Of a DNA stretch of 50,943 bases, positions 6,195-40,669 are shown one piece after another; position 1 is the stretch's first letter, and every line of letters begins with the position of its first letter. The DNA is from Nemertoderma westbladi. Its lineage: Eukaryota; Animalia; Xenacoelomorpha. The translations under genes and the position numbers were made by a program. Where the stretch lies: positions 1 through 50,943 of the forward strand of contig JAUCBJ010004597.1 in assembly GCA_032718475.1 (NCBI GenBank). The letters run 5' to 3'. The notes under the pieces are model-generated. The model was not told the DNA's origin. It was given only the letters and a program-made list of their open reading frames with translations, and did no database searches.

Positions 6195-7754
6195 CCCTGT
6201 TAAACCCGGGGGGGGGGGGGGGGTCAATATGACCCCCCCCCCGTGGTTTTTTTATTATAATTCTGAAACAAAAGTAGTTGGGAATCTCACATTTTATGAC
6301 TTTTCCTAAAAATCTATTGTCTACCTAGTAGTGAAAACCGTTTCAAAAATATTGGGTAGTGTTTGAGTTATAGCACCATTTTTTAACCCTACTTTTGGCA
6401 CTTTTTTTGAGACGTTTTTTGAAAATTACATTATGAATTATACATTACATGAAAATTACATATGAATTGTAACATCTCTATTTTTGATTTACACCGGTTT
6501 TTTGGTGTTAGCAATTGGACAGAATTCATATAAATTGATTTAGAAATTTCAAACTTGTTTTTTTCGGCGGGTGCCAAATTTTGGTGACAGCACCAAATTT
6601 TGAAATATGCCAATTTTGTAAATTGATTGTTTGAAACTTGTTTTTTACGCAATTGGGGTTTTTTGGGATTCTAGTTTCGATGTAATATATACGAGTTGCA
6701 CTAAGCGTATCACACTTGTATTTTTCGGTGCTGTGTGCAAATTTTGGTGCTAGCACGAAATTTTGAAAATCCATTCAATAGATAAAATTGCTGGTGACAA
6801 TTTATTTCTTGCGTTTTAGAGGTTTATGGCTGTTCTGAATTCAATGGAATATATATTTATCGAACTAGACATCTCGAACTTGTATTTTTCGGAAGTGGGT
6901 GCAAAATGTGGAGCTAGCACCAAATTTTGAAAACCATCAAATATATCAATTGATTGTGTCACCTTGTTTCTTGCGTTATACGGGTTTGTGAGGGTTCTGA
7001 ATTCAATGGAATCAGGAAAAAAATTTCATAAGAGATTTCAAACTTGTATTTTTAGCCGGTGGGTGAAAATTGTTGTGCCAGCACCACATTTTGGAAAATA
7101 AGCAAATTGATCAGTAGATAGTATCATATCGTTTCTTGCATTATACGGGTATATGAGGGTCCTGAATCCGTTGGAATGAATAAAAACAGCACCGGATATC
7201 GCAAACTTGTACTTTTTGGTGGTGGGTACGAAATTTGGTGCTAGCACGAAAATTTGCCAAAATACGCCGAAAAATACAAGTAGCAATGATCTGGCATATT
7301 AGAAATGTATTCAATTGGAATCAGCGCCCTAGAAAACCTGAAAATGTGAAATTATAGCATCGTATAAGTGAATTAAAAATTTTGTGTTCTAACTGAAAAG
7401 TCCTGGTTACTTGTTTTTTTCATTTTTTCCTACGTAGAGTAATCATATAATTTTTAAATATTTTCCAATGTACAGTTGCGCCCCAGAAAACCTGTATTGA
7501 AAAACAGTTAGCCGAAAAATGTAACTTTCAAATTTTGTGAAAATTGTGCACAACTTGTAATTTTGGTGATGCAATATAACCACCCCAGTACATTTTTTCG
7601 AAATTTTTTTTTTAGGTCGGATCGAGACTAGTGATACCTACGTACAAACAAAAAATCAGACGTTTTCGTAAAAATTTGTAGATTTTAGGGGGGGGGGGGT
7701 CGATCCCCCCCCCCGGTATTTGTACAACATTTTATAGCCCGGTACTAATAGGGG
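6195..7754 (+). mobile_element. piggyBac-like non-autonomous element (MITE), copy 1
   Basis: TTAA TSD at 6191-6194 and 7755-7758. Termini CCCTGTTAAACCCGG ... CCGGTACTAATAGGG(G). Subterminal G-run/C-run palindromes (GGGGTCAATATGACCCC on the left). Internal ~160 bp subrepeats. No transposase. Confidence 0.9.
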
Positions 7755-8199: not shown

Positions 8200-11100
8200 A
8201 GACCATAAGGAAGTGGAATCTGGAGAGGTGCAACTCAGCGTAAAAGGGGTTATGGCGTGTTATTAAAGGGTGAAACTGACCATTAAAAACGCCCTGGTAC
8301 ACACCGATCTCAGAGTGCGATTCCGACAATCCTCCGAATATGCACCTCTTATACAACTAGATCGGGAGTACGTGGACCTAAGATGCCCACCATTGGACGT
8401 CAACAGAATCACGTTACTTATCGGACTCGATACACCAGAGTTGCATATACCCACTGGAGATATCGCCCGTTCCGTAAAGCCAGACGACGGTTTCTACGCA
8501 GAGCACACCATATTGGGATGGACGCTCTGCGGGATTAAAGAGGAAACCACCGATACCTATACATACCTCCCGAAGTGTCAGATTGAAGGAAACGCAACCT
8601 CCGTGGTTTACTGTTCAGCGACAGAATAAATGAGGATCTATTCTTGGAGACAAAGAAGACACAACAGGAGATGACGAAATACTTTAACCTGGAAACACAG
8701 GAATTCGCCGAAAAGGACGAAAAGCCATCGGAGGAGGACCAATACTGTGTGGACGTTCTAGACAAAGCAGTGTTTAAGGACGGACATTGATGCTCGCCAA
8801 TGTTATGGAAGGATCCGGACAGACCAATGGCTAGCAACGCTAGTATGGCCCTGAGGAGGCTAAAGGGAATCTTGCGCAGGTTGCACGAGCTACCCGAGGT
8901 CAAGGAGAAATATAACAACGTAATTAAGGGATACCTGGAAGATGGACTAGTGGAGATGGTTCCCCAGGACGAATTGCAGGGGACAAAGAGAACCTATTAT
9001 CTTCATACCCACTACGTGGTAGAGGCCCGGAAGGCCGGAAATATCCGGGTGGTGAATGATGCTGCAGCTATGTATCAAGGTGAGTCGTTGAATAGCCAAC
9101 TATACACCAGACCCAACATATACAGCACGCTAATCGGCGTATTGATCCGATTCCGGGAGAATAAAGTAGCCTTCACGTGTGACATCAAAGCAATGTTCCA
9201 CCAGGTGCGAACTTTACCACGAGATTCTGACTGCCTCCGTATTCTAAGGACAGACAAAACATTAACCCCACAAGGAATAAATCAACTTACCTTGGCGGAT
9301 GTGGATGTAATGCGGATGATCGTCCGGATTCGCCAGTCGCGTGTAGCGACATGCTGAAGAAGACTGCGACCATGTGCGAAAATGAGTTCCCTCCGACCGT
9401 CATCGAGACCATCCGGAGATGTTTCTATGTGGACTACGGATGCGCTGGCGCCGATAATGTTGACGAGGCATATCAGCTCGCAATCGGAATGGTGGAATGT
9501 TTAAAGAGGGGAGGTTTCCCCCTAGTGAAGTTTAGATCACATAACAAAGAGCTTATGGAAAAGCTCCCGGAAGAGATCAACAGCGTACTCGTTATTGAAT
9601 GGGACGTAAAATTGGACCAGTTTATCTTCAAACATAACCCCTTACCCAAACCAATGACAAAGAGGGGATGTTTATCCGTGAAGAGCGCCATCTTCGACCC
9701 TTTGAATTTCATATCCCCGGTAACGTTAGCCGGAATGAATCTCATTAAAGAAATGTGGATCGAAGGACTGGGATGGGATGAAGAACTCCCCCCTCACCTA
9801 AGCGCCAAATGAAGAAGTGGACGGAGCAACTGGAACAGCTCCACCTCATGCGGATTCCTCGACCGTTCTTCCTCGACAAGCTGCCCACCAACATATTCCA
9901 GCTCCATACCTTCTCGGATGCCTCGAATACTGGAATCGGGGTAGTTACGTACATCCAGAGGTTAAGCCAAGATGGAAACGGTGATATTAGTTTCTTGTTC
10001 TCCAAAGCGAAGACGGTATCTGGGGAATTTGTGGCAACTATCCCAAGGCTCGAGCTGCAAGCCGCAATCTGGGCCGTAAGACAAAACCGCATGATTATGC
10101 GAAACCTGAGGATCCCCATTGAATCTCAACATTTCTGGGTCGATTCCAGAATAGTGCTCTACTACCTCCACTCACCATCACGATGACACACAACATTCGT
10201 GGCGAACCGAGCCACGGAGATAAAACAGTGCACCAATCGAGAACAGTGGCATCATGTAAATGGGAAAGAGAACCCGGCGGACTTATCGAGCCGAGGCGCC
10301 ACCCCATGACAGCTCGGTAGGAGTAAACTCTGGCTTACAGGCCCGGAGTTCCTAAAGCAACCGCAACGGACCTGGAGCACCCGATGTGATCCCGGATTAG
10401 ATAGTGGTAAATACTCGGAGGATGATAAGGAGATCTGCAAGGTCCGTGAGAGCGCCACCGTGGAGATCTATAGTTGTCTGACTAAGCCTGCAAAGGACTC
10501 GGACAGGCACTATAATGTTGCGACACTGAGCAACCAGCCGCCTCCTTACGACTCCTCATAGAGCAGACGATGAAACATCTCATCCATCACGTTATGACCG
10601 CCCGTAATTTCCTGCGTGGAAGGATAACAAACCGATAGTTCAGCGGAGTGTACAAGAACTCGTTATCGCAGGGAAATGTATTGTAAGATATGTTCAGAAA
10701 GAAAGTTTCCCCGACGAATGGGAGCAGCTCAATGCGGGCAGGACCTTGAAAGCTGATAGCCCGGTCTACCAGTTGAGACCCATGATGGGAGATGACGGAT
10801 TGATCCGCCTTAATACCCGGATGGCGAACGCCCTGGTTGAGTATGAAATTAAGTATCCAGCACTTCTGCCAGGAATGTCTACACTAGCTAAGCTGCTAGT
10901 CCAACAATGTCATGAGGAAAACCATCATGTGGGCCAAAACTGGATCATGGCCAATATCCGGCAACGATACTGGATCACCCACATCCAGCCGCTAATTCGG
11001 AAAGTATTGAAATGGTGTTTCTCTTGTAGGAGATATCTATCGCCACCACTCACCCAAAGAATGGCCGACCTGCCGGCCACGAGACTCCAGTCCGACTCGC

Positions 11101-12066
11101 CGCCGTTCTACGTAACTGGCGTAGACTGCTTCCGACCATTTACAGTTATAGAGTGACGATCCAACATCAAATGTTGGGGAGCCATCTTTACATGTCTACT
11201 GTCAAGGGCGATTTACCTGGACCTTGTAGTGAACCTCACGCAGCACGCATTCATCAACACCCTGCGTCAGTTCGTAGCGAATAATGGTTCATGTACTCGG
11301 ACAATGGAACTAACTTTGTGGGAGGAGAAAGGGAACTAAGAGAGGCTATTGAAGGATGGTTCACTAACGAAACTGCGTCACACATCTGGAAGGAACACCA
11401 CATCCAATGGCACTTCCAGACACCCTTAGCACCCCATACAAGCGGGGTATGGGAGAAACTCATTGATTTAGTGAAACGATCCATGTGGATTGCGTTATGG
11501 GATACCAGGGTCACTCATTGCACACCACATTCTGCGAAATCACGGCTACCCTAAACAACTGGCCAATCATTCCCATCCATGACGACCCAACCGATCTGGA
11601 GCCCCTCACACCCAGACATCTCCTTGGTAGACCTAAGTCCAACATACTTCCAGAGGCCATCTTCCCGGATCCCAATGACATTGCGAAACACACAAACTGG
11701 AAGAAAGCCCAAGCGCTGGCGGCGCATTGGTGGAGAATTTGGGCCCAGGAGTACCTTATAACCCTTCGAATGAGGAGGAAATGGAATGATACGTACCGGA
11801 ATGTCGCAGTTGGGGACATGGTACTCGTCAAGGATGACCTTAAAGACTGCGTCCACTGGCCTGTGGCGCGTGTCATGGAAATAACCCCAAGCAAAGATGG
11901 ACTTGCGAGAACGGTGACGATACGAATGGCAAAGGGCCACTACCAATGCCCTATCCAGAGGCTTTGCCTTCTCGAAGGCAATGACAGTGGTGACTCCATG
12001 AGAGGTGATAAGTTCCCTACTCCGGATCCTGCTGCGGACATTGGTGACACTGATAAACCCGTTTAA
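8200..12066 (+). pseudogene. Decayed BEL/Pao pol (protease C-terminal region, RT, RNase H, integrase, C-terminal domain); 5' part absent
   Basis: Motifs in order: LLIGLD..TILGW; RVVNDAAA..GESLN..LIRFRE..CDIKAMFHQV; FYVDY (YxDD mutated); IFDPLNF; LHTFSDAS..TIPRLELQAA..WVDS; [10 protein letters not shown]; HEENHHVG..CFSC; YSDNGTNFVG..GVWEKLI; VGDMVLVKD..WPVARV..GLARTV. Many stops and frameshifts. Confidence 0.95.
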
Positions 12067-12335
12067 CACATCCCATCCTGTTGACAAACTCTTTAAATGT
12101 GATTTACCGACAATGATTATGGACCCCCCTTAAACCAACTGTAACCACGCATGGTATTTGTGTTTCCTCGTGTGTTATGTGGAGTCCAGCGTCACCCTGC
12201 AGATGTTTCGACTGACGCTGGGTAGTTTATGTTTTGTTCACCCTGATTTTGGTCATCAGGACCAACTACCTTGGTTTATTGGAAATAGGAAAGTTTCGAA
12301 GTGTAAGTCATTGTGTCTATTATGTTTGTCCTGTG

Positions 12336-12698
12336 TTGTCCGTTACGTGTGCAGTTTGGGGCGTAGGCGGTGTAATGAGTCCAGCTGTAGATCCCAGACT
12401 GCCGCATAACACCCCCTCTATCGCGTTATTCTGGTGGGTCCATGGTACATTCCACATGACTTCGTCGATAGAGACTTTATGTTCCTCAGCCACGTTATTC
12501 TGGTGGGTCCCTGGTGCATTCCACGTGACTTCGTCGGCTGAGCTTTATGTTTCTGGGAGTGTTATTCTGGTGGGTCCCTGGTGCATTCCATGTGACTTCA
12601 CTTCCAGCGTTCTATTCATTGTCCGTTACGTGTGCAGTTTGGGGCGTAGGCGGTGTATCGAATCCAGCTGTAGATCCCAGACTGCCGCGTAACACCCC
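12336..12698 (+). repeat. ~80 bp direct repeat (12336-12416, 12619-12698) enclosing three ~68 bp tandem units
   Basis: TTGTCCGTTACGTGTGCAGTTTGGGGCGTAGGCGGTGTA...CCAGCTGTAGATCCCAGACTGCCGC occurs twice. GTTATTCTGGTGGGTCCmTGGTrCATTCCA occurs at ~12425, ~12494 and ~12561. Confidence 0.9.
12358..12370 (+). promoter_or_regulatory. Putative polypurine tract of the 8200-12066 BEL element
   Basis: GGGGCGTAGGCGG immediately before TGTAA, ~300 bp after the pol stop. Confidence 0.55.
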
Positions 12699-13305
12699 TT
12701 CCACAACGAAAATTTCCCAAGAAGATGGCTAAAAGTAGTACGAAATGATGGAAAGAAACAGATAACTCAACTATAAACTGAATGATGACTTGTACTATTA
12801 TGATGATGAGAATGTGATGATGTGCATCCCTGGTGTCTTGCGCTTATAACCCAATGATGATAGCCGGGGGGCTATAACCCCAATGAAATGGTGAAATAAA
12901 TGATGAAATGTGAAATAAATGATGAAATGTGAAATAAATAATGAAATGTGGAATAAATGATGAAATGTTAAATAAATGATGAAATGTGAAATAAATGATG
13001 AAATGTGAAAGAAATAATGAAATGTGAAATGAATAAACTATAGAAATAAAAAAGACAAAAAAAGGTATAAAATGTAGAATGGAAAAAGAATTTAAAAAAG
13101 AAGCGGACATGCGGACAAAAACTGGTTGGATAATAATGAATAGCTTTAGTAACTGTAAATACTGAATTTAGTACCAATAAGATGATAGATGCCTATATAT
13201 CAATAATATTACTTACATTAAAAATAACTATTCTGCAGTCGCTATAGAATCAGACTTTCTGGATTTATAATTAACTGAATTAATTTGTAACGGACGTAAT
13301 TTACA
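12371..13305 (+). repeat. Putative LTR A (~935 bp, TGTAA...TTACA) between BEL pol and exonuclease ORF A
   Basis: Starts TGTAA after the PPT and ends TTACA (inverted termini). It is followed by ATA and then TGG (13309). It contains internal tandem repeats and a TATA-like CCTATATAT at ~13192. No second copy in the window, so LTR status is inferred. Confidence 0.55.
12880..13035 (+). repeat. 19 bp minisatellite (ATGATGAAATGTGAAATAA)n
   Basis: About 7-8 slightly diverged units are directly visible. Confidence 0.9.
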
Positions 13306-13307
13306 AT

Positions 13308-15924
13308 ATGGACCCGAATCGCCAGATTCTCGGCGAATTACGTACTACAATTGATTTATTGGAAAATCCACTGGATCTCCTAGTTTTGATTTGATGTTTA
13401 GATGTTTAGGTTTAGATGTGAAATGGAATGCCCTGTTGAGCGAGAATGTGCGAGTCATTCGTTTCTCTGGGAGGGAGGTCCTGGATACCCATAACCTACA
13501 GGCGCTCCGGTTGTCCGATGCTAGTACAAGCCTGAAAAGGACTCGGAACGCTGAGGCAACCGGAGGAGGAGAGTTGTCGTTCTGGGATACGTTCCGGCGA
13601 AGCGTCTACAAATCCCGGTGCTTGATATACGACAATGAGGGCAACGCGATGCCAACTCCGAAGGCGGTTACAATGGCGCGATGTCAGAGTTTCATCGATG
13701 ATAAGAGTACATATCTCGCACACTGGGGAAACCTGGTGGAATGTACAGCGACGCTGTGAGAGGACTGAATGACAGTCATCCAAAACCGAGACGACTATAA
13801 AGAAAAATACAGGACAAAAGAGTACGGTCGGTCGCTAATCGTCATCCTCGGAACCCTAGACGGATTGGTACTGGTGTGTCGAATATTTCCAACACCACAA
13901 CAGGAAATACGGACAGCTGGAGTGATCTGGTTACTACCATCGGAGATCCAATAGATCCTGTTCGACTTTGATATTATCAAAATCGGATCAGATATAAAGG
14001 CGGACCTCCGAAACGACTACATCAACGCTCCATTCGGAAGGAACTGTAGAGAGGACATCAGCGCAACTTCATTGACACCCAAACCCTGCTGGTCTGGTTA
14101 CGGGTCACAGACTTTATGGGCGGGTTTAGAGAGGTGAGACGGACCAAATCCGGTATCGGCTACCTAGCAGTGCTAAACGGCGGTTTAGATTTTAAACCAC
14201 AGAAGTTCCCGGACTACAATAAAATCTACAGCGCGCATCCGGATCTAGCGATACATCATGAGCGGGAGAACCGTTGGAGGGATGTAGAGAGGAAGTGGAC
14301 GATCCACCAACGCTGGGATAATCTGGATCGCCAAAACTACATCTACGTAACGATGGAGTCTTACACGGTCGCCAAGTTTATCTGTAAAACCCTCGATAAG
14401 CATATTAGCGCGGTCCCCAACGCCTTCATAGACTACGAATGGAACGAGGTGATCGAACATGCATTCAAGGCGGTACAGAATATCCAACTGGGAGATACCA
14501 AGATGCTCGACATAAACGAATCCTGGGATCTGCATGGACCATTCGATATCCCAACGATTAACGATCTCCTTGGCGCAGAGGAACTTATAGTGTTGTCGGA
14601 AGGGGAGGAGTTATGGAAACACGAATGTGTTCTGTTATCCACACCGAAACGTCAACACATACCGGAAGTTGCCTACGGATCAGCCGCTAAGCGAATTGCC
14701 GCGACTGAGCCTACGATGGACTCTGGTGTAACTACTCCGCTTGGTTCCGGTAGTCCGGCGAGAGAACTAGTTACCACACTCGCACTCATTGACTTAGATT
14801 ATACATGCAGGAGGTTATCTCCTTACCCATTTCCTGGAGGAGAGGATTGGTCCACGGAAACCCCAAGTACCAGTACCCAGCCGACCCGATCTGTAATCCA
14901 AGTTACGAAGGGCCCTAGTATACCACCAACCCCGAGAGACCTCCTCGGGATTCCTTCGGCGAATATTCCGGCACTCCATCGCCGACTGGCTATTGCGACG
15001 GCTCCCACCATTCCAGAGGACCCGATGAGACTCACCCGATGGTACACGGAACAGAGGGAGTGGATTCATCGTCAGAAATGAGCACCCGAAATGCGTCCAG
15101 CAGACAATAAGGAGGGATACCGCAGCGAGGCCCAACACCGCGACAGCACAGCGTTCCGCGGGCTTCCTATGACGACGATTATCCCCAAGAAGGATAGACG
15201 ATTGGAATATTACGCCGGCGTACAGATCCCGATCTTCTTCGGTCAGGAAATGCAACTAGATGTTTGCAGTAGCTGTGGTTCGGATCAGTGTCCTCGCGGT
15301 AAGAAACAACGAGTAACCGAACCGTGTTTCCAAATCCTCGGGATAATATATTGCCCATATTGCGCCACCCCGGGCCATGACGTAGCAGTTTGCCCGACAC
15401 TTTATAACGTCTGTACGACGTGCAGCTTCCGTGGGCATATGGCGAGCCCTCGGTGCAACATTAAATGTCCTACCAAGGATGTTACAGCTACCGGGAACAT
15501 GGTTATGTTCGAGACATACGCCAATGTCCACGTAAAGACCAGAGCGTGATTGAGCGCTCGAAACGTTGCACAGGAGATGGCGTGCAGATATTTCTTGTTC
15601 CCCGAACGCCTCCATACGGTAAAGACCTTGCCTTTCCACTATGTGGATTTATTGCTTAGCGCCAATCTATTCGGTCTCTTCGAAGTGATTAGACGTCTAT
15701 ATTCGTATACCGAAGCGTTTGGAGATGGAGAATGGTTCCAGGTGGCACGAACCATCAAGCTGGAAAGGAGAACAGATCTCATCTCGATTCCCCCCCGAGG
15801 AAGGGCTGCCAGGAGGCAGGCAGCGTCACTTCTCATGTCGGCCAATGATGCCCCTCTACCCGCATTTGCGATAGATGAAAGTCGACGGGCGAAGAAAATG
15901 AAAGCATATCAAAGCAGGAGATGA
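13308..15924 (+). pseudogene. Decayed ~870-codon ORF A: DnaQ/WRN-like (DEDDy-type) 3'-5' exonuclease, Pro/Thr-rich linker, three CCHC-type knuckles, unknown C-terminal domain
   Basis: ExoI CLIYDNEG; VILGTLDGLVLV; LPSEIQ*ILFDFDIIKIGSDIKADL (ExoII); KSGIGYLA; RWDNLDRQNYIYVTMESY (ExoIII). Then CSSCGSDQC (degenerate knuckle), CPYCATPGHDVAVC and CTTCSFRGHMASPRC. ORF-track fragments 13391/13769 share one frame and 14116/15091/15550 share another. About 2 frameshifts and several in-frame stops. Confidence 0.75.
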
Positions 15925-16444
15925 AAGACCAGGACATTTATAGACACTTATTCGAACATTTATTTTTATATGTACGTAAACTAACTCTAGGACAAATTAA
16001 TCATAGACTATGCAATAATAAAAATTGGGTTTTTATATGGGGAAATGACCTTACGCAAACTCGATCCACCGATAGACCTCACGAAGGTCATTTGGGGGGA
16101 CTGTTCGCGGTATTTCAATTTATCATTACGCGAGTTACATATTTTTTGGATTTATATTTTATGAATGTTCCAATATCATTGGTGGGTGCGGGAACACAAA
16201 ATTTGGGCACATTTGATAGACTGGGGGCGATTTAAGGGCGAAACTTGGGCGGACTTAGGGGCGCGGGAACCATCTCAGATATTTAAGGGCCATGGGTGGG
16301 AGGTAAAATCAAGCAATACTCTCGGCTGTCAGGGTTGCCTGATAGTTACTAGAGGTCTAGACAACCTCCTTCTACTTCGGTAGTTGGTATCCCGCTAGGC
16401 CTGGGGACAAGGACTGCCCTTAGAGGTCCCTGGCCATCAGTGGT

Positions 16445-17000
16445 GACTGAGCCTGAAAAGGACTTGGGCGTTGCTCGATGCGCTAGGGATTTGCGACGGG
16501 ACTGATAGATCCTAAGCGGTTCCCGGTGCGTTGGCTACGACTGAGCCTGAAAGGGACTCGGGTGGAGTCTTCGCATTGGGGACTTGCGAAGGATCGACTG
16601 ACCGGACGGAAAGGAAGGGTTCGACGAGAACTGACTTCCTGGCATGGGCTCCACGACTGGCGTTAGTACGAGCCTGAAAAGGACTCGGAAGCTCCGACAG
16701 TTGGGGCTCACAACGGGCCGACAGACCCCTAGCTAAGCCGTACCGCTTTCCTGATGACCGATCCCGTTAGGGTTCGGGAAGGGTGGGTCGGACATGCGAC
16801 AGGGTCGAAAGACAGAGGACCGGACTTTACTGGCCTACCGACTATTCGGAGCGGGTTCTCGACTACTAACGTGACTACGAGCCTGAAAAGGACTCGGAAA
16901 GCTTAGGTGGCTGGGACCCTGCGATGAACCAACAGACCCCTATCTAAGCCGTACCGCTTTCCTGATGACCGATCCCGTCAAGGTTCGGGAAGGGGGGGAC
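16445..17000 (+). repeat. GC-rich diverged repeat array with a conserved GAGCCTGAAArGGACTyGG core
   Basis: Cores at ~16450, ~16543, ~16670 and ~16879. The last two units also share ACAGACCCCTAkCTAAGCCGTACCGCTTTCCTGATGACCGATCCCGT. Confidence 0.85.
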
Positions 17001-17450
17001 AGACAAGCGAACGATCGACCGACACTGACACTACGGTACCGGGACTAGGACCGAGGGAAAATGGGGAACATTAGTTATGTCAAAAATCTGAAAGTTAAGC
17101 GAACAGTGGGTAATTAAATAATTTACTGTAGGAATTTATATTGTGTATTATTGTGAATATTTGGTATATTGGTGTGTGGGGAAGCCCAAATTATTCTTTT
17201 GCTTATTGTTTCCCCGTAGGTTGTACACAGTATGTACACTCAACAAAGAATATATTGATGAACACTACTAATGAACACAGCTGAACTGTACTGTACTAAA
17301 TTGATAGATTGCGCAAATGCACAGTCACATGCTACTAATTTAGTTCTAGCCACAAGGTGTTCTGTTTGTTAACCTGACCTTTCTAGGTAACAAGCTGGGG
17401 TGTTAATAGGCCTAATTGTCTTTAGCAATTAAGATTTTATTCACTTTAGG

Positions 17451-19258
17451 CTGACTGACTGACTGACTGACTGACTGACTGACTGTCTGTCTGACTGACT
17501 GACTGACTGACTGACTGACTGACTGACTGACTGACTGACTGACTGACTGACTGACTGACTGACTGACTGACTGACTGACTGACTGACTGACTGACTGACT
17601 GACTGACTGACTGACTGACTGACTGACTGACTGACTGACTGACTGACTGACTGACTGACTGACTGACTGACTGACTGACTGACTGACTGACTGACTGACT
17701 GACTGACTGACTGACTGACTGACTGACTGACTGACTGACTGACTGACTGACTGACTGACTGACTGACTGACTGACTGACTGACTGACTGACTGACTGACT
17801 GACTGACTGACTGACTGACTGACTGACTGACTGACTGACTGACTGACTGACTGACTGACTGACTGACTGACTGACTGACTGACTGACTGACTGACTGACT
17901 GACTGACTGACTGACTGACTGACTGACTGACTGACTGACTGACTGACTGACTGACTGACTGACTGACTGACTGACTGACTGACTGACTGACTGACTGACT
18001 GACTGACTGACTGACTGACTGACTGACTGACTGACTGACTGACTGACTGACTGACTGACTGACTGACTGACTGACTGACTGACTGACTGACTGACTGACT
18101 GACTGACTGACTGACTGACTGACTGACTGACTGACTGACTGACTGACTGACTGACTGACTGACTGACTGACTGACTGACTGACTGACTGACTGACTGACT
18201 GACTGACTGACTGACTGACTGACTGACTGACTGACTGACTGACTGACTGACTGACTGACTGACTGACTGACTGACTGACTGACTGACTGACTGACTGACT
18301 GACTGACTGACTGACTGACTGACTGACTGACTGACTGACTGACTGACTGACTGACTGACTGACTGACTGACTGACTGACTGACTGACTGACTGACTGACT
18401 GACTGACTGACTGACTGACTGACTGACTGACTGACTGACTGACTGACTGACTGACTGACTGACTGACTGACTGACTGACTGACTGACTGACTGACTGACT
18501 GACTGACTGACTGACTGACTGACTGACTGACTGACTGACTGACTGACTGACTGACTGACTGACTGACTGACTGACTGACTGACTGACTGACTGACTGACT
18601 GACTGACTGACTGACTGACTGACTGACTGACTGACTGACTGACTGACTGACTGACTGACTGACTGACTGACTGACTGACTGACTGACTGACTGACTGACT
18701 GACTGACTGACTGACTGACTGACTGACTGACTGACTGACTGACTGACTGACTGACTGACTGACTGACTGACTGACTGACTGACTGACTGACTGACTGACT
18801 GACTGACTGACTGACTGACTGACTGACTGACTGACTGACTGACTGACTGACTGACTGACTGACTGACTGACTGACTGACTGACTGACTGACTGACTGACT
18901 GACTGACTGACTGACTGACTGACTGACTGACTGACTGACTGACTGACTGACTGACTGACTGACTGACTGACTGACTGACTGACTGACTGACTGACTGACT
19001 GACTGACTGACTGACTGACTGACTGACTGACTGACTGACTGACTGACTGACTGACTGACTGACTGACTGACTGACTGACTGACTGACTGACTGACTGACT
19101 GACTGACTGACTGACTGACTGACTGACTGACTGACTGACTGACTGACTGACTGACTGACTGACTGACTGACTGACTGACTGACTGACTGACTGACTGACT
19201 GACTGACTGACTGACTGACTGACTGACTGACTGACTGACTGACTGACTGATTGACTGA
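17451..19258. repeat. (ACTG)n tetranucleotide microsatellite, ~1.8 kb (~450 units)
   Basis: Near-perfect array, with small variants only near each end (CTGT near 17485, GATT near 19250). Confidence 0.98.
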
Positions 19259-19650: not shown

Positions 19651-22600
19651 GCCACTGCCAGGATCGGCATGCTGCATTGCAGCTGCATTTTTAAGAATGC
19701 TGTGCCGGCTTGTCGACAAAATTGCACCGCTACAACTCCCTATCACCCATGACATTTGCTAGATCATCCGTATCTTCAAGGCCAGTGTCCTTTAAGATGC
19801 GTCTCAAGAAAGTCATGGGCTGTCCATGAGGCTGCCAAAGTACAAGATTATGCACTGGCTGGTCCTCATGGCGAAAGCAATGTCCTGCAAAGCGGAGGCG
19901 ATTTTGTTCTAGTGTCAAGCTTGGGGGAACCAATGAGACACCTCCAATGTTATATAATGTCAGGTTGGAGATGTGTGCATTGTACTTGACACAATGAACC
20001 CGGCGTAGCATTGTTGTGAATGTGACATCCAGAGATTTGGTGTCCTAAGCAGTTAGAGCCCTGTCATGGACTCCCATAGAGGAGTACTGGAACTACTGCT
20101 GCTCTAAATAATCGGACCTTAAGTTCCCGATTAATTCTCGGTGACTTCCAAATCCTGGAAAGCCTATTCAAGGCTGCCCATACCTTTCCCTTACGTATTC
20201 GAAGGTCCTCACCTGACTTCCGGATCCATGATCCCAGGTAATAGAAGTCGTCCACATGCTCAAGCACACCATCCTTTGATCTTATGCTCATTCAATCAGA
20301 GACTTGCTGAGGACTTTCAAAGTTAACTGTCAAAATTTTGGTCTTTCTGGAGTTAATAAAAAGACCAACACTAGAAGCAGCATGCAGCTGAGGAGGCGTT
20401 GGGCTCCCCCTAGTGATTCTGAGAGTACTCCTAAGTCATCAGCAAAGTCTAGATCAGTTAGGTACTTGGCAGGATTTCCTCGACTTCTGGAGCCAGTAGG
20501 TGGAGTTATCATCACCCCATCATCATTATGATGATCTAAGGACATGCGTAGAACATAGTCAACCACAATTATGAACAAGAATGGTGCAAGTGTGTCTCCC
20601 TGGAAGACGCACCATAGCACTTCAAATGGTTCTGTGTCACCATCAACAGTAGACACAAATGTTGTCAAACCATCGTATACTGATCTGATTGCTGCAATAA
20701 TTTCATCAGGAATCCCATATAATGAAAGTATGCTGAACATACGTGAGCGAGAGACTGAATCATAGGCCTTGAAGAAGTCAACAAAGATAACAGCCAGATG
20801 CCTGTCTTTCTTTTTTGATAACTCTTCAATTATCCTTCTAAGTGCCAAAATGGGCTCCATGGTCCCACGACCTTTACGGAACCCATTCTGATTTCCACGG
20901 AGCAGTCTCTCAATGGGATCCCTGATGCGATTTAATAGAATTGTATTGCATAGCTTTGCAGCAATCGAGATCAATGAGATTCCCCGAAAAGAACCATAGA
21001 GTGTTAGGTTGCCGTTCTTGGGAACTGGTACCCTGTCATTATTGAGGAGCTTTTCAAAGTGGGCCTTCCAACCATTGAGGCGATCGGCTGGTGATTCAGC
21101 TTTAACCTTGGTGGTTGGTTGGCTTTTCCGACCAGTAAGCAAGTTGATCGATTTCCATGCCTGGGATGATTGCCTGCTGTCGTCAGCATCATTGATGGCA
21201 TCAACCTGTTGGTTTATTAGCTCCTGTAGATTAACAGAGTACTGCCTGTTCAGGGACCTAGATGCAGCCTTAACTGCATTCTTGGCTGCTGTAGTCTGTT
21301 TGAGTCGGGACTCTTTCTGCGCCTTATATAGCGGTCATTTCGGCACTTCTGATTTTGTTGTCAGTCCAGGGGGCCCTTTTCCTGTTTCGAGGGTATACAG
21401 GAACTGTTTCTGTAGCTGCTAACTTAACTGCTTCTGTGAAGGCAGTATAGCCCTCACAGTGATCTGCCGCCTCAGAGGCAAGAACCTCATACCTGTTGCT
21501 CAGCTGTAGTGTGAAGCTGATCTCACACTTGACTGTTGCAACAGAGAGGACCAGTCATGCCGCGGCAAGGAAGATGCAGTCTGATTGGCCACAATAAGGC
21601 GGTGATCACTGGATAAGGGTTGAAGTGTAAATGCATTACGCTCTTGTATAGAGCTCCTGTATTTCCTATAAAACAGAATATGGTCTATCTGGGACTTGTG
21701 ACCACTGGGTCCACTATGAGTCCATAGCTTTCCAGTTCGCTTCTGGACTGGGTTCCAGCCGAAAACAATCCATTTCCAGAGATAAAATCCTGAAGATGGA
21801 CGGAATTTCGGTTAACACTATTGCTATAGACCCAGGGCGATGTTAAGAATGCATGCTGATCCACTCCATCAGTAGCTGCTTGTAGATTGTGGTAGAAATT
21901 TTCCACCTCCTCTACAGGGGCAACACTAGTTGGAGAGTAGCGCACAATTAGAACCACCTTAGGAAATTTCTTAGCCAGTCTTCCAGAACATGAGAAGTGG
22001 CAATGGATGATGCGGTTAGAGATTTGGTCTAATTTGTCCAATGCTGCATGTGCAGTTGGATTCATCAATAGACCAATACCACCATTGCCACTATCATCTG
22101 CTGACGCGAGGGCGAGTCGCCAACCGCCCCCCATGTCTTTAATCAGAACCTCATCAGTCTGTCCAGTCTGCATTCGGTGCTCTTGAACACCTACTGCGCT
22201 AAGAGAAAGCTTATCTGCCAAGGCAGTCTGCTCACCTTGTCGCATTGGGGACCCGAGTGTTACGGTGTTTACTGAGGCTAGTCTAGTGACTTGCCTCAGA
22301 TTCACCAATGGCTTTGTTGGTCGGGGTGGAACATGATACCACACCCTGGTTTGCCATTCCACAGGGTGGGTGTCGCAGTGGGGTCAGATATGAGGCCCAT
22401 CCCCCATATCTACTCTGGCGCACATGACCCACCATTGGCAGTGCAGCTCATCTGCTGGGTCATGCCCTGTACCCCTGCTGCCAGGTGCAGGTCGCAGTGA
22501 AGTGCACTCAGGGTGGACATGAGAACACTCTACTCCTGACCAGCCATTGGTAGATCACCATCCGTCTGGCCAGGCCATATACCCCTGCAGCCAAGTATAT

Positions 22601-25639: not shown

Positions 25640-28600
25640 CCATTATCGTCTCTCAAATATCGTTTTGCTGGTGATCCCATCAGGTGCCCTTCTTGTCCAC
25701 CCCTTGTGGCATCCCACATGATGATCCTCATCTCGCGGGAATGTGTTCTTTAAAGAATCCCCTAAACTCTGCTTTCCTTTCCACCAACCACCTACCCAGG
25801 TATCATTGGGTGTTGGTAGCCCCTCCAAGCGATGCTGCTGTAAACCCCTTTCTGGTAAGTAAAGGGTATCTTCCTGTGAATCAGCTCGTGATGGGTTTCC
25901 TTGTTGAAATTGAAGAAGTCCCACCGGAATTCTTGGGCCTTTTTCCTTTGTTTCGTCATCAACCCCACATCCGCCCAATGTTCGAACACCTGAAATTTCT
26001 CCCCATTTCCCATTCCGTTGCAGTGGCGCTCGAAATGGCCATGGAACTTCCACTTATCACATCTGTAGTGTAGTTCCGGAGATGCACCCATGGTATGCCT
26101 GAAGTCGCGACAATACTTATGGCTCACTCCTTTATTGTATCGATATGGACAGTTCTTTCTTTGGTGGATTAATCACCCACAGTAGTCGCAGCCATCTATT
26201 ATGGCTTGCCTCCCGAACTCGTCCTTCTCACTATGCGTCCGTTTGGGTTTGTGGAGTCATTGATATATAAACATTTCAATGTTCGCATTGCGACCCATAT
26301 CTATCTCTGTTTCCTCCCTCAGCACCACTCAGCGCCGAATACTACTTGCAGTGCCATTCCAGGTTGTTCCCCTAGTCTGATCGCCACTGCCGTGAAGTCG
26401 GTTACTGGTTCTCCATGTTCCCGAGCTCTTTTACCTGGGACATCCCATAAACCTCTCGCCCCGCTGGCTGTCACCACTCTTCCATCTACCCAGTCCGTAT
26501 CTGCCGGCCCAATCTGTTCTATCAGCGACATTTCCCCGATCTCATCCTGTTCCATCCTTTCCAATGGGCATGGTTCCAGGCCTGGAATTATTTCCGATCC
26601 TGATATCTTTCTCTGGACCAGTTCTTGTATGAGAACTCCCCACGTCCGCTCTCGACCTCTTCCTTGCATAGTTGCTCTCGGACCCCGCAGGTATTGGCAT
26701 CATCTGCAATCAAGACATTGATTGAATTGGTGATCCCTTAGGATATCTCGGCATCCTTCCCTCTTCCTCCTCAAACCAAAACCCGCTAGAACTAGAGCCC
26801 TCCGAGGGCCATCTCAACTTATCCAGGTCGTGCACCCGAATTCATACTCGTCCTCCCATCCTTTCTCTATCTCATACTCTCATCCTCTCTCATTCTCTCC
26901 CTGCCGCATCCTTTCTTTCTCTCCTAGCGGCCTCTTCCTCCCTGTATTCCTCTTCTCGATCTGCCTCCTTCTTCTCCCATCATTGGAATGCTCGATCTGC
27001 CTCCTTCTTCTCCCATCATTGGAATGGTGTATCTATGCCTCTAACCACTAGATGCCTTTTATTATAGTATAACCGACTCACCTTTCCATCCCGGGTGGTC
27101 TGCAAGATCTTCCAGAGGTACCTTAACCCTATTAAACCCGGGGGGGGGGGGGGGGGGTCAATATGACCACCCCCCGTGGTTTTTTTATTATAATTCTGAA
27201 ACATACGCAGTTGGGAATCTGAAATTTTATGACTTTTTCTAAAAATCTATTGTCTTCCTAGTAGTGAAAACCGTTTTCAAAAATATTGGGTACTTTTCGA
27301 GTTATAGCACCATTTTTTAACCCTACTTTTGGCACTTTTTTTGAGACGTTTTTTGAAAATTACATTTCATTAAATATGAATTGTAACATCTCTATTTTAG
27401 ATTTACAACGGTTTTTTGGTGTTAGAAATTGGATGGAATTCATATAAATTGATTTAGAAATTTCAAACTTGTTTTTTTCGGTGGGTGCCAAATTTTGGTG
27501 CCAGTACCAAATTTTAAAATAAGTCAATTTTGTAAATTGATTGTTTGAAACTTGTTTTTTACGCAATTGGGGTTTTTTGGGGTTCTGGATTCGATGAAAT
27601 ATATACGAGTTGCACCAAGCGTATCGAACTTGTATTTTTCGGTGCTGTGTGCAAATTTTGGTGCAAGCACGAAATTTTGAAAATCCATTCAATAGATAAA
27701 ATTGCTTGTGACAATTTATTTCTTGCGTTTTAGAGGTTTATGGCTGTTCTGAATTCAATGGAAAATATAATTATCGAACTAGACATCTCAAACTTGTATT
27801 TTTCGGATGTGGGTGCAAAATGTGGTGCTAGCCCCAAATTTTGAAAACCATCAAATATATCAATTGATTGTGTCACCTTGTTTCTTGCGTTATACGGGTT
27901 TGTGATGGTTCTGAATTCAATGGAATCAGTAAAAATTCCATAAGAGTTCTCAAACTTGTATTTTTCGCCGGTGGGTGAAAATTGTTGTGCCAGCACCAAA
28001 TTTTGGAAAATATTCAAATTGATAAGTAGATAGTATCACCTTGTTTCTTGCGTTATACGGGTTTATGAGGGTCCTGAATCCGATGGAATCAATAAAAACA
28101 GCACTGGACATCGCAAACTTGTAGTTTTTGGTGATGGGTACGAAACTTGGTGCTAGCACCAAAATTTGCCAAATTACGCCGAAAAATACAAGTAGCAATG
28201 ATCTGGCATATTAGAAATGTATTCCATTAGAATCAGCGCCCTCGAAAACATGAAAATGTGAATTTATAGCATAGTATAAGTGAATTAAAAATTTTGTGTT
28301 CTAACTGAAAAGTGCTGGTTACTTGTTTTTTTCATTTATTTCCTACGCAGAGAGGACTAAACAGCCATTTATAGTAATCATATCATTTTTAAATATTTTC
28401 CAATGTATTTTGCACCCCAGAAAACCTGTATTGAAAAATAATTAGCCGAAAATGTAACTTTCAAATTTTGTGAAAATTGTGCACTACTTGTAATTTTAGT
28501 GCTGCAATATAACCACCCCAGTACATTTTTTCGAAATTTTTTTTTTCTATATATATACCTACGTACAAACAAAAAATCAGACGTTTTCGTAATTATTTGT

Positions 28601-29649
28601 GGATTTTAGAGAGGAGGGTCAATATGACCCCCCCCCCCCCCCGGTATTTGTACAACATTTTATAGCCCGGTACTAATAGGGCTAAAGGCTCTCCTATGGC
28701 TCAGTGTTGATCCTAAAAGTAGAAATGCTGTCGGCTCCTTGCCAATGACCACCATTACGAACAGGTTCACCAACCTGATCATTATCCAATCCTCCTGCAA
28801 GATGTATTCTGGTCCAACTTGATTACCCCCTTTCGGAATTGATATATCTCTTCCCTCCTCGGCCTGAGTGAGTTTTGAGTGAGACCATCAGTTCCACTCC
28901 ATTTTCTCCTCGGAACTTCTTCCACTCCATTGGTTTATGAGACACGAGTCCCATCAGTTGTCCCATGGCTACGGCAACATATTGTCCCATATTCTCCACC
29001 AATCCCAGCCCGTCTGGTTTCGTCATAGCCATGTAGATTACCTGCATGTCCAGAAGGCTCGGGGTGTTTGGTCCAATGATCCGTTCCGCGTCGTCACGGA
29101 TTGCCGATCTGATCTTGACCATCAACTTGGTCCTAACTAACTACTGGACGGCTTCCAGCAGGTTTAGTTTAGGCCCGTCCTTCTTTCTATAGGTCCCCAA
29201 GTCGAACAGAAAAATATCTCCCTTCAGCACTGCCATATGCAGCAATATGGTTCTACCCGACCCCATTGACTCCCTCCTTGTCTCCTCATGATCCTCTACG
29301 GTCCCTCATCGTCCAAGACTATGCAGCATTCCCTCTCTATTGACTCCATAAACTTCTTCCATTCCTTCCTCGGTAAATTTCTCTTATGAGTCAGGATCCC
29401 AAAGGAGGCTTCTTTCTCTTTCACGACATAGTGGAAATGCTCGTTGATCGCAGTGTCTAACAATGGCGTCCCGTAGATCCCCACGTGCAGGCTCCGATAG
29501 TGATCCTGCAGTCCGTGTGCTTTCTGGCTCTTATGGAGTCGCTGGTAGTACTTCCTTGACTTATTCTCCGGCTCCCTCCTGGTGAAATCGACTAACAAGT
29601 CCTTCTCGCTCTTTTCCAACATTCTCTTCTAGAGTCATTTCTCCGCCAT
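25640..29649 (-). pseudogene. Decayed ORF B, divergent homologue of ORF A (exonuclease, charged linker, three CCHC-type knuckles, shared C-terminal domain), split by a piggyBac MITE
   Basis: EWKKFMESIERECCIVLDDEG (A: FWDTFRRSVYKSRCLIYDNEG); LLHMAVLKGDIFLFDL; LVRTKLMVKIRSAIRDDAERI; LLDMQ; EYILQED. FGRQAIIDGCDYCG*LIHQRKNCP (A: FGQEMQLDVCSSCG). KYCRDFRH..PELHYRCDKWKFHGH (A: PYCATPGH..PTLYNVCTTCSFRGH). FEHWADVGLMTKQR..KIPFTY (A: FETYANVHVKTRA..TLPFHY). 3' boundary approximate. Confidence 0.75.
27127..28681 (+). mobile_element. piggyBac-like MITE, copy 2
   Basis: TTAA at 27123-27126, CCCTATTAAACCCGG ... CCGGTACTAATAGGG, right TSD mutated to CTAA (28682-28685). Colinear with copy 1. Removal restores the ORF B reading ...HRRAFKVPLEDLAD... 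Confidence 0.9.
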
Positions 29650-30591: not shown

Positions 30592-30895
30592 TCAACTAAT
30601 GTAGGGTGATTCTTCCAGCAGGCAACACTTTCCTACTGCCCTATTGTAAGTTTTCCTGTCTTTCGCTCCAATCTTCACGCCAATCCTGAATTTCCTGACT
30701 TTCCTGACTCTCCTGATCCTGATCTGACATTCCCATCTACTCCGGGATAGCACTCGATGACTCTGGCGAGTCTCCACTGATTGTTGATGACCGTGACATC
30801 CATCACTATTATTAAGTCGCCTTTCTTCAGCTCTCGTTTATTATTCTTCCAATTACTCCTCTTATGCAACGTCGGTAGTGATTTGGTTATAATTT
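30592..30895 (-). pseudogene. C-terminal fragment of a BEL/Pao integrase
   Basis: LPTLHKRSNWKNNKRELKKGDLIIVMD..NNQWRLARVIECYPGVDGNVR..KTYNRAVGKCCLLEE. Confidence 0.85.
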
Positions 30896-33579: not shown

Positions 33580-33755
33580 TCCATTCAATGGATAAAATTG
33601 CTTGTGACAATTTATTTATTGCGTTTTAGAGGTTTATGGCTGTTCTAAATTCAATGGAAAATATAATTATCGAACTAGACATCTCTAACTTGTATTTTTC
33701 GGAAGTGGGTGCAAAATGTGGTGCTAGCACCAAATTTTGAAAACCATCAAATATA

Positions 33756-34094
33756 TGTTATGTAATGTGATCTGTAATAATGAAACCAATACGTAGTAAA
33801 TTGCAATACATTGTTTAAATTGATTAGCCAACACACTAAGTATATAATGTTTGCCCCAGAAATAAATCCGCGTAAAGTCTATCCATAGAAGCCATTAATT
33901 AACTGTAATGTGCAAATTAATTAGACTAACCATATGTTAACCTCACAGTTTGTGCAGTACGTAATATATAGTTGTTAAAGAATGTATTCTAACTAGTGCC
34001 AAATTGAGTTCCAATATATAGTATCTTTCCGTATTTAGTACACTATTATTTTCCATTCCATAAATGGACTTCCACTTGGGGAAGATCCACAACA
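33756..34094 (+). repeat. 5' LTR (339 bp)
   Basis: TGTTATGTAATG...GATCCACAACA. By eye it differs from the 3' LTR only by a 1 bp and a 2 bp indel. Confidence 0.97.
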
Positions 34095-34096
34095 AT

Positions 34097-34106
34097 TGGC
34101 GCCCGA
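34097..34106 (+). promoter_or_regulatory. Primer-binding site, probably tRNA-Lys
   Basis: TGGCGCCCGA 2 nt after the LTR matches the first 10 nt of the classical Lys3 PBS (TGGCGCCCGAACAGGGAC). Confidence 0.7.
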
Positions 34107-34198
34107 TATTAAAAACTCATTTAGTTCATTAAATAAATACATTACATTATTGTGTAAACTGTTCATCGTCATTATTCGGCAAGTTCATTACATTCACA

Positions 34199-39700: not shown

Positions 39701-40084
39701 TTTACTGGAGGACAGACTTCGTCCTCGTTGCTTTTGGAAATTATGTAAAGTAGAAAAATTAATAATAAGCAAGGATGGGAAATGTAGAGCAGTACAAATA
39801 TCAGTCGCGAAACGAAAGAAAGCACTAAACTTATCAGATCAATCAAACGAGTAATTCCATTAGAAGTGAACGAAAATGACAAAGAGGAAATATCAACTGT
39901 CGCAATACAACAGACTTACAATAAACCAAATACAGACAAAGTCAGTAACAGTAAAGTCACAATTATCGCAAATCAAAAAAATGACAAGCAAGCTTTACCG
40001 AGTACATCACAACCTGCCGTTGGACGTACTCGCGATCTGTTGCCTAGAAATGCCAAAAAGTTAAAAGTTGGCGTTTACAAATAA
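36680..40084 (+). CDS. pol: BEL/Pao Pol (RT, RNase H, integrase); open to 39569, then further frameshifts in the integrase C-terminus
   Basis: VVFNGSAK..ADIEQAF..FGLICS..LYVDD; LYDPFG; HGFSDAS..NPADIPTRG; H-x4-H..CITC; IDFCGP..SDNAS..FIERLV. After 39569, shifted frames give HFW, WKEEY, VGDICLL and IKRVIPLEV. Confidence 0.93.
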
Positions 40085-40631
40085 GCAAATTTTAGTAAAT
40101 TTGCAACTACTGTTTTGCATTTTGTATGTACAGTAATACAGTTATGTGTAAAGTAAGTAGTACAGTAGACACTTATATTTGTTTTGTTGGATGAAGACTC
40201 TTATATATTTGTTTTGTTGGAAGATTAAATATGAATATATTATGTAAATTTATGTAATATTATGTAAACAAAATGCCTTTCTAGTAAAGTAATATTATTT
40301 ATTTAACGGTAAACGAACTCCACTATGTAGTAAGTATAGTACCATTGTTAAAAACTCAATTGGTGTTGTTTATAATATTATTTGTGTCATTAATCGTATG
40401 TAGTAAAGTTAATTACGTGATGTTTGCATTATTTATTAATTATAATATTAAATACGGTATATTAATTTTGTTTTGGTATAAATGGTAGATATGGTTATTA
40501 GGTTATGAATTATTGCATTATTTAATTCATTTGTACAAATATATTATTTATACTGAAGTTAATTTCTCATTTAGCATATTACCTTCATTAACTTAAAATG
40601 CAATGATATTTTGTTCTACTGCATCGTGAAC

Positions 40632-40669
40632 AAAGGGGGAGTGTTATGTAACCAAAGCAAAAGGGGGAG
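40632..40669 (+). promoter_or_regulatory. Duplicated polypurine tract plus LTR start
   Basis: AAAGGGGGAG-TGTTATGTAA occurs at 40632-40651 and again at 40660-40679. Confidence 0.9.

Follow-up and report, generated by a model that had tools for sequence, protein, structure and literature searches.

Retroelements are usually described as gag-pol or gag-pol-env, and enzymatic accessory genes are rare in them. In bdelloid rotifers, a third open reading frame (ORF3) coding for an RNase D-like exonuclease of the DEDDy type is found in the long terminal repeat (LTR) retrotransposons Juno and Vesta and in the Athena/Terminon Penelope-like elements (Rodriguez, Kenefick, Arkhipova 2017, PMC5408684). In the description given there, one catalytic Asp is replaced by Glu, so that DEDD becomes DEED, the enzymes are proposed either to process the 3' ends of element RNAs or to take part in silencing, and such exonucleases in retrotransposons are stated to be previously unreported (PMC5408684). 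The Dada DNA transposons of Laccaria and Ectocarpus carry a DEDDy domain inside their transposase (Kojima and Jurka 2013, PMC3706591), and a 2019 opinion paper includes a DnaQ-like exonuclease in its list of known accessory domains of LTR elements (PMC6338049). Here we describe a long but decayed coding region, which we call ORF A, at 13307-15924 on the + strand of contig JAUCBJ010004597.1 of Nemertoderma westbladi (assembly GCA_032718475.1); the whole 50,943-nucleotide (nt) stretch that was analyzed is referred to as the window. On balance we favor the reading that ORF A represents a dead copy of a retrotransposon gene that exists in many copies, likely the ORF3 of a BEL/Pao element lying between pol and the 3' LTR, and that its intact relatives encode a predicted 3'-5' exonuclease of DEDDy fold joined to zinc knuckles like those of nucleocapsids.

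ORF A resembles the rotifer ORF3, as the latter is described, in being an extra gene other than env downstream of pol with an RNase D-like DEDDy domain, and in carrying Glu for a catalytic Asp, which in the ORF A family occurs at the ExoIII motif; function is unproven in both. The probable host element of ORF A is BEL/Pao, whereas the rotifer elements are presented as Ty3/gypsy-like or Penelope-like. The rotifer ORFs are reported to have 'strong homology' to DEDDy enzymes, whereas the ORF A family goes unrecognized by Pfam, a comparison made by description. ORF A also fuses three CCHC knuckles and a new C-terminal domain to the exonuclease-like domain, whereas for the rotifer elements the passages searched lack the term 'zinc knuckle' and mention only a Cys-His-Cys motif, in Vesta2 and Vesta5. 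Dada is likewise a mobile element with a DEDDy domain, for which 3'-end processing during transposition was proposed (PMC3706591), but as described these are DNA transposons unrelated to BEL/Pao, in which the domain sits inside a DDE transposase and keeps all four DEDD residues. In open PMC and bioRxiv papers, with Repbase outside the scope of the search, we found no report of an exonuclease ORF3 in BEL/Pao, or of its fusion with three knuckles and a C-terminal domain. What is new here is most likely the BEL/Pao host element, the nucleocapsid-like knuckles, the new C-terminal domain and a family that lies outside the domain libraries.

A decayed gene and its relatives

The original prediction, which was made from the sequence alone, had stitched ORF A together as a single intronless frame of ~870 codons. 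A long coding region without intron interruptions is indeed present on the + strand, but it is not intact, being broken by five internal in-frame stops (13757, 13766, 13952, 15079 and 15547; TGA in four of the five) and by at least one frameshift. Frame 2 is open over ~13355-14137 apart from the first three of these stops, with another stop at 13352 in the unsupported 5' part, and frame 1 is open from 14050 to the terminal stop at 15922-15924 apart from the stops at 15079 and 15547. The change from frame 2 to frame 1 falls at ~14030-14065, within the exonuclease-like domain, and the homologous alignment resumes in the other frame. The first exonuclease motif is also damaged, with Lys at the position of the ExoI Glu and part of strand beta1 deleted. 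With these lesions, the copy in the window is unable to make a protein.

An exhaustive phmmer search of 1.84 billion cluster representatives with the frame-1 read-through of ORF A returned seven proteins at E<=1e-3 (best 3.4e-9, none at or below 1e-10). All seven are unnamed or annotated as 'hypothetical protein', come from metagenome assemblies and belong to clusters of one to three members. Five of them share one layout, consisting of an N-terminal domain, a linker, three CCHC knuckles and a C-terminal domain:

P0003, 715 amino acids (aa), full-layout relative
P0006, 717 aa, full-layout relative
P0008, 642 aa, full-layout relative
P0009, 648 aa, full-layout relative
P0004, 633 aa, full-layout relative

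P0005, P0007 and P0010-P0012 (345-447 aa) have the knuckles and the C-terminal domain only, without an exonuclease domain. P0004 contains the knuckle and C-terminal module twice in tandem; from this protein, the module can duplicate, and a frame that is otherwise open can lose its nuclease site.

We translated frame 2 and frame 1 of ORF A with X at stops, giving the read-throughs P0001 and P0002. In BLASTP comparisons, P0001 residues 160-241 match P0009 residues 54-138 (E 3e-9) and also P0003 (3e-6), P0002 residues 7-165 match P0003 residues 241-397 (2e-7), P0006 (1e-4) and P0009 (0.004), and the knuckle and C-terminal region matches all seven relatives (E 1e-13 to 6e-9). Because both halves of the N-terminal domain find matches, the similarity of ORF A to its relatives is not limited to the knuckles. 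A profile built from the five foreign long relatives matches the window at 13829-14014 (E 4.7e-8), 14056-14466 (E 5.3e-14) and 15247-15672 (E 9.7e-22), and together with the BLASTP matches it places ORF A far beyond chance. Word-indexed protein searches gave no match for the window read-through, and with the family alignment they matched only P0009 itself; no longer forms of the family fused to pol were found by word-indexed search, which counts as weak evidence.

The features of ORF A are as follows:

13784..14047, + strand: exonuclease-like domain, first half, frame 2 (BLASTP against P0009 E 3e-9, against P0003 3e-6; profile 4.7e-8)
13793-13801, + strand: ExoI remnant D-Y-K, aligned to the D-x-E of the relatives
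13832-13888, + strand: beta2-beta3 of the exonuclease-like domain
13979-14005, + strand: ExoII KIGSDIKAD, at the family's conserved position
14030..14065, + strand: frameshift
14050..14466, + strand: exonuclease-like domain, second half, frame 1 (profile 5.3e-14; BLASTP against P0003 2e-7, against P0006 1e-4)
14068-14082, + strand: IDTQ, in the second half of the exonuclease-like domain
14149-14199, + strand: GIGYLAVLNGGLDFKP, in the second half of the exonuclease-like domain
14344-14358, + strand: ExoIII-like YVTME, at the family's conserved position
14467..15264, + strand: linker of low complexity, poorly conserved, with the stop at 15079; lowest summed depth in the repeat
15265..15456, + strand: three CCHC-type knuckles
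15265-15300, + strand: knuckle 1, degenerate, without the His
15352-15393, + strand: knuckle 2, an exact CX2CX4HX4C
15412-15456, + strand: knuckle 3, CX2CX4HX5C, with one extra residue
15457..15924, + strand: C-terminal domain matched by the profile, with FE.YA at 15508-15522, LPFHY at 15628-15642 and the stop at 15547, followed by a basic tail

Upstream of ~13784, neither BLASTP nor the foreign-homologue profile found significant similarity to any relative. The ATG at 13308 that had been taken as the start lies in the third frame, unlike either reading frame of ORF A, so that assignment is abandoned. The low-complexity linker, in contrast, is present as described.

The N-terminal fold, the knuckles and the C-terminal domain

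The five long relatives have a common set of motifs in the N-terminal domain: D-x-E, two hydrophobic strands, K-[VG]-G-S-x-[IV]-x-x-D, [LIW]-D-T, G-[IVL]-G/A...D/N-F/L-K and Y-x3-E (Y-x3-D in P0008). The ExoI D-x-E follows a hydrophobic strand in four of the five (IDVE, FDVE, MDLE and IDTE), and P0004 has VDFK there. The ExoII Asp is kept in the window and in the same proportion of long relatives, with P0004 degenerate at this site, and ExoIII reads Y-V-T-M-E in the window, Y-x3-E in P0009, P0003 and P0006, and Y-x3-D in P0008, while P0004 is without the motif. All three sites, D-x-E (ExoI), D (ExoII) and Y-x3-E/D (ExoIII), are retained together in four of the five long relatives, and these residues are kept despite an overall identity of only 24-25%. 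The window copy retains KIGSDIKAD, IDTQ and YVTME, and its ExoI site is D-Y-K with a 5-residue gap before it. The original assignment of ExoII to KIGSDIKAD and of ExoIII to YVTME agrees with the conserved positions of the family; ExoI had been placed at YDNE (13628-13639), a non-homologous place ~55 codons upstream of the D-Y-K to which the family's D-x-E aligns.

The fold was examined on an AlphaFold2 model of P0009, made from a 12-row alignment, in which the predicted local distance difference test (pLDDT) score is ~70-90 at residues 30-160 and 220-275 and mostly below 50 in the remainder. A Foldseek search of PDB yielded 67 matches at E<=1e-3, and those listed are without exception DEDDy-type exonucleases or exonuclease domains. 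EXD2 stands first among those listed (1.6e-6), then Egalitarian, T. brucei RNase D and Rrp6, and further matches include EXD1, NrnC, diDNase, the exonuclease-bearing apicoplast DNA polymerase and E. coli RNase D. VIA-align comparison of residues ~28-285 of the model gave the highest score to the Nibbler EXO domain (Z 14.5, root-mean-square deviation 3.1, 194/219 residues aligned), with NrnC at 13.6, the NrnC and diDNase matches together spanning Z 13.0-13.6, T. brucei RNase D at 12.9, and E. coli RNase D and the WRN exonuclease both at 12.8. In BFVD, the model matches 3'-5' exonucleases of giant viruses and phages. Based on this modeling, we accept a predicted DEDDy (DnaQ-like) exonuclease fold for the N-terminal domain of the family. 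The WRN/RNase D-like exonuclease of the original prediction thus stands at the level of the fold and for the family, through P0009; on the sequence libraries alone, Pfam and PDB, no significant DnaQ-like match was obtained, an outcome that taken by itself would have counted as a refutation of the original prediction. In phmmer searches against PDB sequences, P0001 found nothing and P0002 only chance antibody light chains, and ESM Atlas gave no usable match for window 14050-15078.

The likeness to Nibbler, EXD2, WRN and E. coli RNase D consists of the best fold matches, the ExoI-ExoII-ExoIII order and a D-T motif after ExoII, which is typical of cellular DEDDy enzymes. The family differs from them in having no significant sequence similarity, in mostly having Y-x3-E and not Y-x3-D, in longer inserts between ExoII and ExoIII, in its other partner domains and in its multi-copy mobile context. 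T. brucei RNase D (PDB entries 7c42-7c4c, under the name 'CCHC-type domain-containing protein') likewise has a DEDDy domain followed by a CCHC knuckle in one chain, and matches the P0009 N-terminal domain with a Foldseek E of 1.9e-5 and, in the alignment of Z 12.9, over 200 residues at 17-18% identity. It is a cellular enzyme, however, and the conserved C-terminal domain of the family is not seen in it.

The triple knuckles of the original prediction are present as three CCHC units in the relatives, with six-residue spacers and invariant Cys and His columns, but in the window only two are good units and the first is degenerate. The family profile matches Lin28 (E 6.4e-4) and HIV-1 nucleocapsid (2e-3) in PDB, within a range of 6.4e-4 to 1e-2, and its knuckle region also matches T. 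brucei RNase D at E 0.038. Pfam zf-CCHC stayed below threshold, with E 0.046 and 0.06 in two of the seven relatives, and in the window zf-CCHC_4 had E 0.15. The family shares with retroviral and LTR-element nucleocapsids and with Lin28 the CX2CX4HX4C units and the short spacers; it differs from nucleocapsids in that its knuckles are outside Gag, in a separate gene, where an enzyme-like domain precedes them and a new C-terminal domain follows. This last domain, originally noted as an unrecognized FE..A...PF.Y region, is conserved in all relatives as FE.[FYW]A..G..T..R...GFF.F...LPF.Y..LL and lies at 15508-15642 in the window. We found no fold match for it: the AlphaFold model of P0007 has a mean pLDDT of 43, Foldseek against PDB gave nothing at E<=1e-3, and ESM Atlas gave only knuckle-driven leads for P0007 residues 50-200 (score <=0.86).

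Repeat family and position behind BEL/Pao pol

The ORF A stretch belongs to a high-copy dispersed mobile family. In three sequencing runs from the same organism (X1, X2 and X3), 1183, 1047 and 926 contigs, respectively, match 13000-16300 at >=80% identity; these are counts of contigs, and contig depth is not a copy number. In X1, 139 of the contigs are at >=99% identity, 253 at 95-99%, 413 at 90-95% and 378 below 90%. Internal-deletion joints recur in two to three runs (13481->14159, 15651->15796 and 14974->15222). This spread of identities and the deletion derivatives are nonetheless what a dispersed mobile family shows, and they are at odds with a host gene as well as with one processed pseudogene. 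The stop at 13757 is private to the window copy, since essentially all other contigs read a different letter there. Within the window, self-comparison and tblastn found no second DNA copy of 12000-17400, and Rfam gave no RNA family within 12000-17500.

Upstream of ORF A on the same strand is a decayed BEL/Pao pol, identified by Peptidase_A17 (E 1.1e-22), Integrase_H2C2 (E 2.3e-8) and DUF5641 (E 7.3e-28), and the confirmed part of ORF A starts 1.7 kb downstream of it. The parts of this putative element, other than ORF A itself, are:

8267..12066, + strand: decayed BEL/Pao pol with protease end, reverse transcriptase (RT), Peptidase_A17, integrase H2C2 and DUF5641, 5'-truncated and in at least six ORF pieces
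12067..13783, + strand: spacer between pol and ORF A, with very high-copy segments
12424-12599: 69-nt tandem repeat in the spacer
12883-13034: 19-nt minisatellite in the spacer
15997..17238, + strand: putative 3' LTR with three ~210-nt repeats, ending ...TGTACA (from depth and a joint; no LTR pair)

Repeat depth runs unbroken from pol through the spacer and ORF A to 15867-17240 and then collapses: it is 5.6k-25k over the putative 3' LTR and drops to ~100-130 in the bin 17241-17440. The letters ...TGTACA stand directly before the collapse, as LTR ends read. From a joint 16828->11219, seen in all three runs, some copies have the downstream repeat in front of pol, where an LTR would be expected. 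The GC content is 0.49-0.50 in pol and ORF A, against 0.34-0.38 in the window background. A 30-nt motif at 13523-13552, shortly before the confirmed part of ORF A, is found again at 16430-17070 in the three ~210-nt tandem units of the putative LTR, and the joints 13548->16662 and 13550->16667 suggest recombination between copies of this motif. Summed contig depth reaches its maximum for the whole region at 11974-12431, just past the pol stop (24,000-49,000). Pol and ORF A lie far below this, which looks as though the segment also belonged to a short repeat of much greater abundance.

The strongest support for the proposed ORF3 position comes from a second locus in the window, on the - strand, where the order is integrase C-terminus, exonuclease-like remnant, inserted repeat, and knuckles with C-terminal domain:

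30720..30878, - strand: BEL/Pao integrase C-terminus (DUF5641), E 4.4e-11
28904..29371, - strand: exonuclease-like remnant with beta2-beta3, ExoII-like KIRSAIRDD and LLDMQ, at profile positions 96-218
27167..28635: inserted copy of a 1.5-kb dispersed repeat (repeat families D1-D3, D5-D8, D10, D12 and D13)
25852..26211, - strand: knuckles and C-terminal domain, decayed, profile E 1.2e-20

The DUF5641 of the second locus is 36% identical to that of the first element over 50 residues (E 9e-8), and its knuckle and C-terminal part is 25% identical to ORF A (BLASTP E 3e-7). Since the same gene order appears in two diverged elements, a chance juxtaposition is unlikely.

The window also holds a young BEL/Pao element at 33756-41009, with ~340-bp LTRs (33756-34096 and 40670-41009) that are 99-100% identical, an open gag-protease at 34133-36736 (DUF1759, zf-CCHC, DUF1758) and pol at 36546-39569 (Peptidase_A17, Integrase_H2C2). 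No exonuclease-like ORF3 is found in this element, which indicates that the gene is lineage-specific. The ~1.5-kb dispersed repeat of the second locus has internal 163-nt tandem units and three to four copies in the window (6234-7714, 27167-28635 and 41083-41797, also 33580-33756); one copy splits the second ORF-A-like gene, and the young BEL/Pao element has inserted into another. A (CTGA)n microsatellite of ~452 units at 17451-19258 adjoins a minus-strand long interspersed nuclear element (LINE) at 19730-22383 (RVT_1 20330-21334, E 4.8e-20) and is probably the 3' tail of the LINE, an inverted 171-nt copy of whose end lies at 32614-32784. Two further RT ORFs, at 44985-47249 on the - strand (RVT_1 8.5e-31) and at 47683-48636 on the + strand (RVT_1 2.1e-17), probably belong to non-LTR elements and are unrelated to ORF A.

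Competing readings and the role of the family

Several observations weigh against reading ORF A as a copy of an exonuclease ORF3 of BEL/Pao. Pfam returned no exonuclease family for six stop-free fragments, two read-throughs and seven relatives, with DNA_pol_A_exo1 followed up to E=10 on the window read-throughs and up to E=0.1 on the seven relatives; neither it nor zf-CCHC, the two families named in the original prediction as a check, reached threshold on the window fragments. Apart from knuckles, the PDB search with the family profile matched EXD2 alone, with an E of 1.7 that is not significant. The predicted DEDDy fold comes from a single model, which was made for a relative and not for the protein of the window, and the structural neighbors of that model include the inactive RNA binders Egalitarian and EXD1. 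At ExoIII, Glu replaces the canonical Asp in three of the four relatives that have the motif, and P0004 is without the ExoI Glu, the ExoII Asp and ExoIII altogether. Since five short cluster members have no exonuclease domain, the nuclease appears not to be obligatory for the knuckle and C-terminal module. Scans of metagenome contigs and viral contigs found no genomic surroundings for the relatives. With respect to position, there is no LTR pair around ORF A in the window, where the element is 5'-truncated and the second locus is truncated as well, the summed depth over pol is ~10x that over the ORF A linker, and the exonuclease-like remnant of the second locus is a weak match (profile independent E value 0.0023; hhalign probability 86.6%, E 4.5e-6).

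The points that concern the catalytic site would suit a family of catalytically inactive RNA-binding adaptors, in which the DEDDy fold and the knuckles package or localize element RNA, as in Egalitarian, EXD1 and Maelstrom. We regard this as possible but doubtful. Egalitarian and EXD1 are indeed among the best structural matches, and the Glu at ExoIII, the loss of acidic residues in P0004 and the existence of short forms without the exonuclease domain are all in its favor; inactive DEDD derivatives were also raised for the rotifer elements in the account of their ORF3 (PMC5408684). However, the retention of D-x-E, the ExoII Asp and the ExoIII Tyr with its acid in four of five long relatives at 24-25% identity fits selection on a metal site, and the top VIA-align matches, Nibbler, NrnC and RNase D, are active enzymes.

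The points that concern position could instead mean that ORF A is no BEL/Pao gene at all, and is a separate mobile element of another, unassigned class that happened to insert, or inserts by preference, downstream of remnants of BEL/Pao pol. The missing LTR pair, the ~10-fold depth gap between pol and the interior of ORF A and the very high-copy spacer segments are consistent with this, and recurrent internal-deletion derivatives occur in DNA transposons too. We nevertheless believe that a separate element is unlikely, given the same order and strand at two diverged loci, the composition shared with pol, and the joint 16828->11219, which ties the downstream repeat to pol. Moreover, a search around ORF A for terminal inverted repeats gave nothing convincing, its best pair being 26 nt at 73%, and the interval from 13.1 to 17.2 kb contains no transposase or RT.

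Many LINE ORF1 proteins typically carry three CCHC knuckles at close spacing, so the knuckle and C-terminal module could be the Gag-like ORF1 of a non-LTR retrotransposon, with ORF A being an ORF1 that gained an N-terminal domain. The second copy at 25852-26211 does lie upstream of the minus-strand LINE ORF2 at 19730-22383, but more than 3 kb separate the two, the second copy is collinear instead with the BEL/Pao integrase C-terminus and the exonuclease-like remnant, and no RT follows ORF A on the + strand, so we consider this very unlikely. The lack of introns in ORF A and the resemblance of its predicted fold to host Nibbler, EXD2 and WRN might suggest that it arose as a processed pseudogene from a conserved exonuclease gene of the host. 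This is hardly credible: each run has roughly a thousand contigs that match the stretch and its flanks at 80-100% identity, the flanks are part of the same repeat, there is no significant sequence match to a named host family, and the relatives are rare and unnamed. The original view that ORF A is not a known host gene agrees with these last findings.

The original prediction noted neither the ORF3 position behind BEL/Pao pol nor the published DEDDy ORF3s of retroelements; the activity it put forward, trimming the 3' ends of element RNA or cDNA or interfering with small-RNA silencing, is conjectural. If ORF A is a copy of a BEL/Pao ORF3, as we favor, its family may act in knuckle-guided 3' trimming. 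In active elements, the knuckles would bind single-stranded RNA or cDNA of the element inside the particle, as nucleocapsid knuckles do, and would hand over a 3' end for trimming by the exonuclease domain. Candidate substrates for such trimming would be the 3' ends of genomic RNA, primer remnants, and cDNA ends before integration. The conserved C-terminal domain might anchor the protein on Gag or on the particle. A more far-reaching proposal, which we consider speculative and quite improbable, is that BEL/Pao elements carry in this undescribed family, with its DEDDy nuclease, knuckles and new C-terminal domain unseen by domain libraries, a means of counter-defense beyond replication, binding and degrading or over-trimming those Piwi-interacting RNAs or small interfering RNAs of the host that target the element, or destroying immunostimulatory nucleic acids of the element.

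So far, the accounts cited above document exonuclease add-ons for bdelloid rotifers and, inserted within a transposase, for the Dada DNA transposons. If our reading is true, different classes of retroelements would repeatedly recruit 3'-5' exonucleases, and a DEDDy module could diverge beyond recognition by sequence libraries. It would also point to a recurring need, either for 3'-end processing of element RNA or cDNA or for interference with small-RNA defense. A small family annotated as 'hypothetical' until now is thereby defined and given a testable predicted activity, together with a C-terminal domain that is conserved across all relatives and has had no recognizable fold so far.

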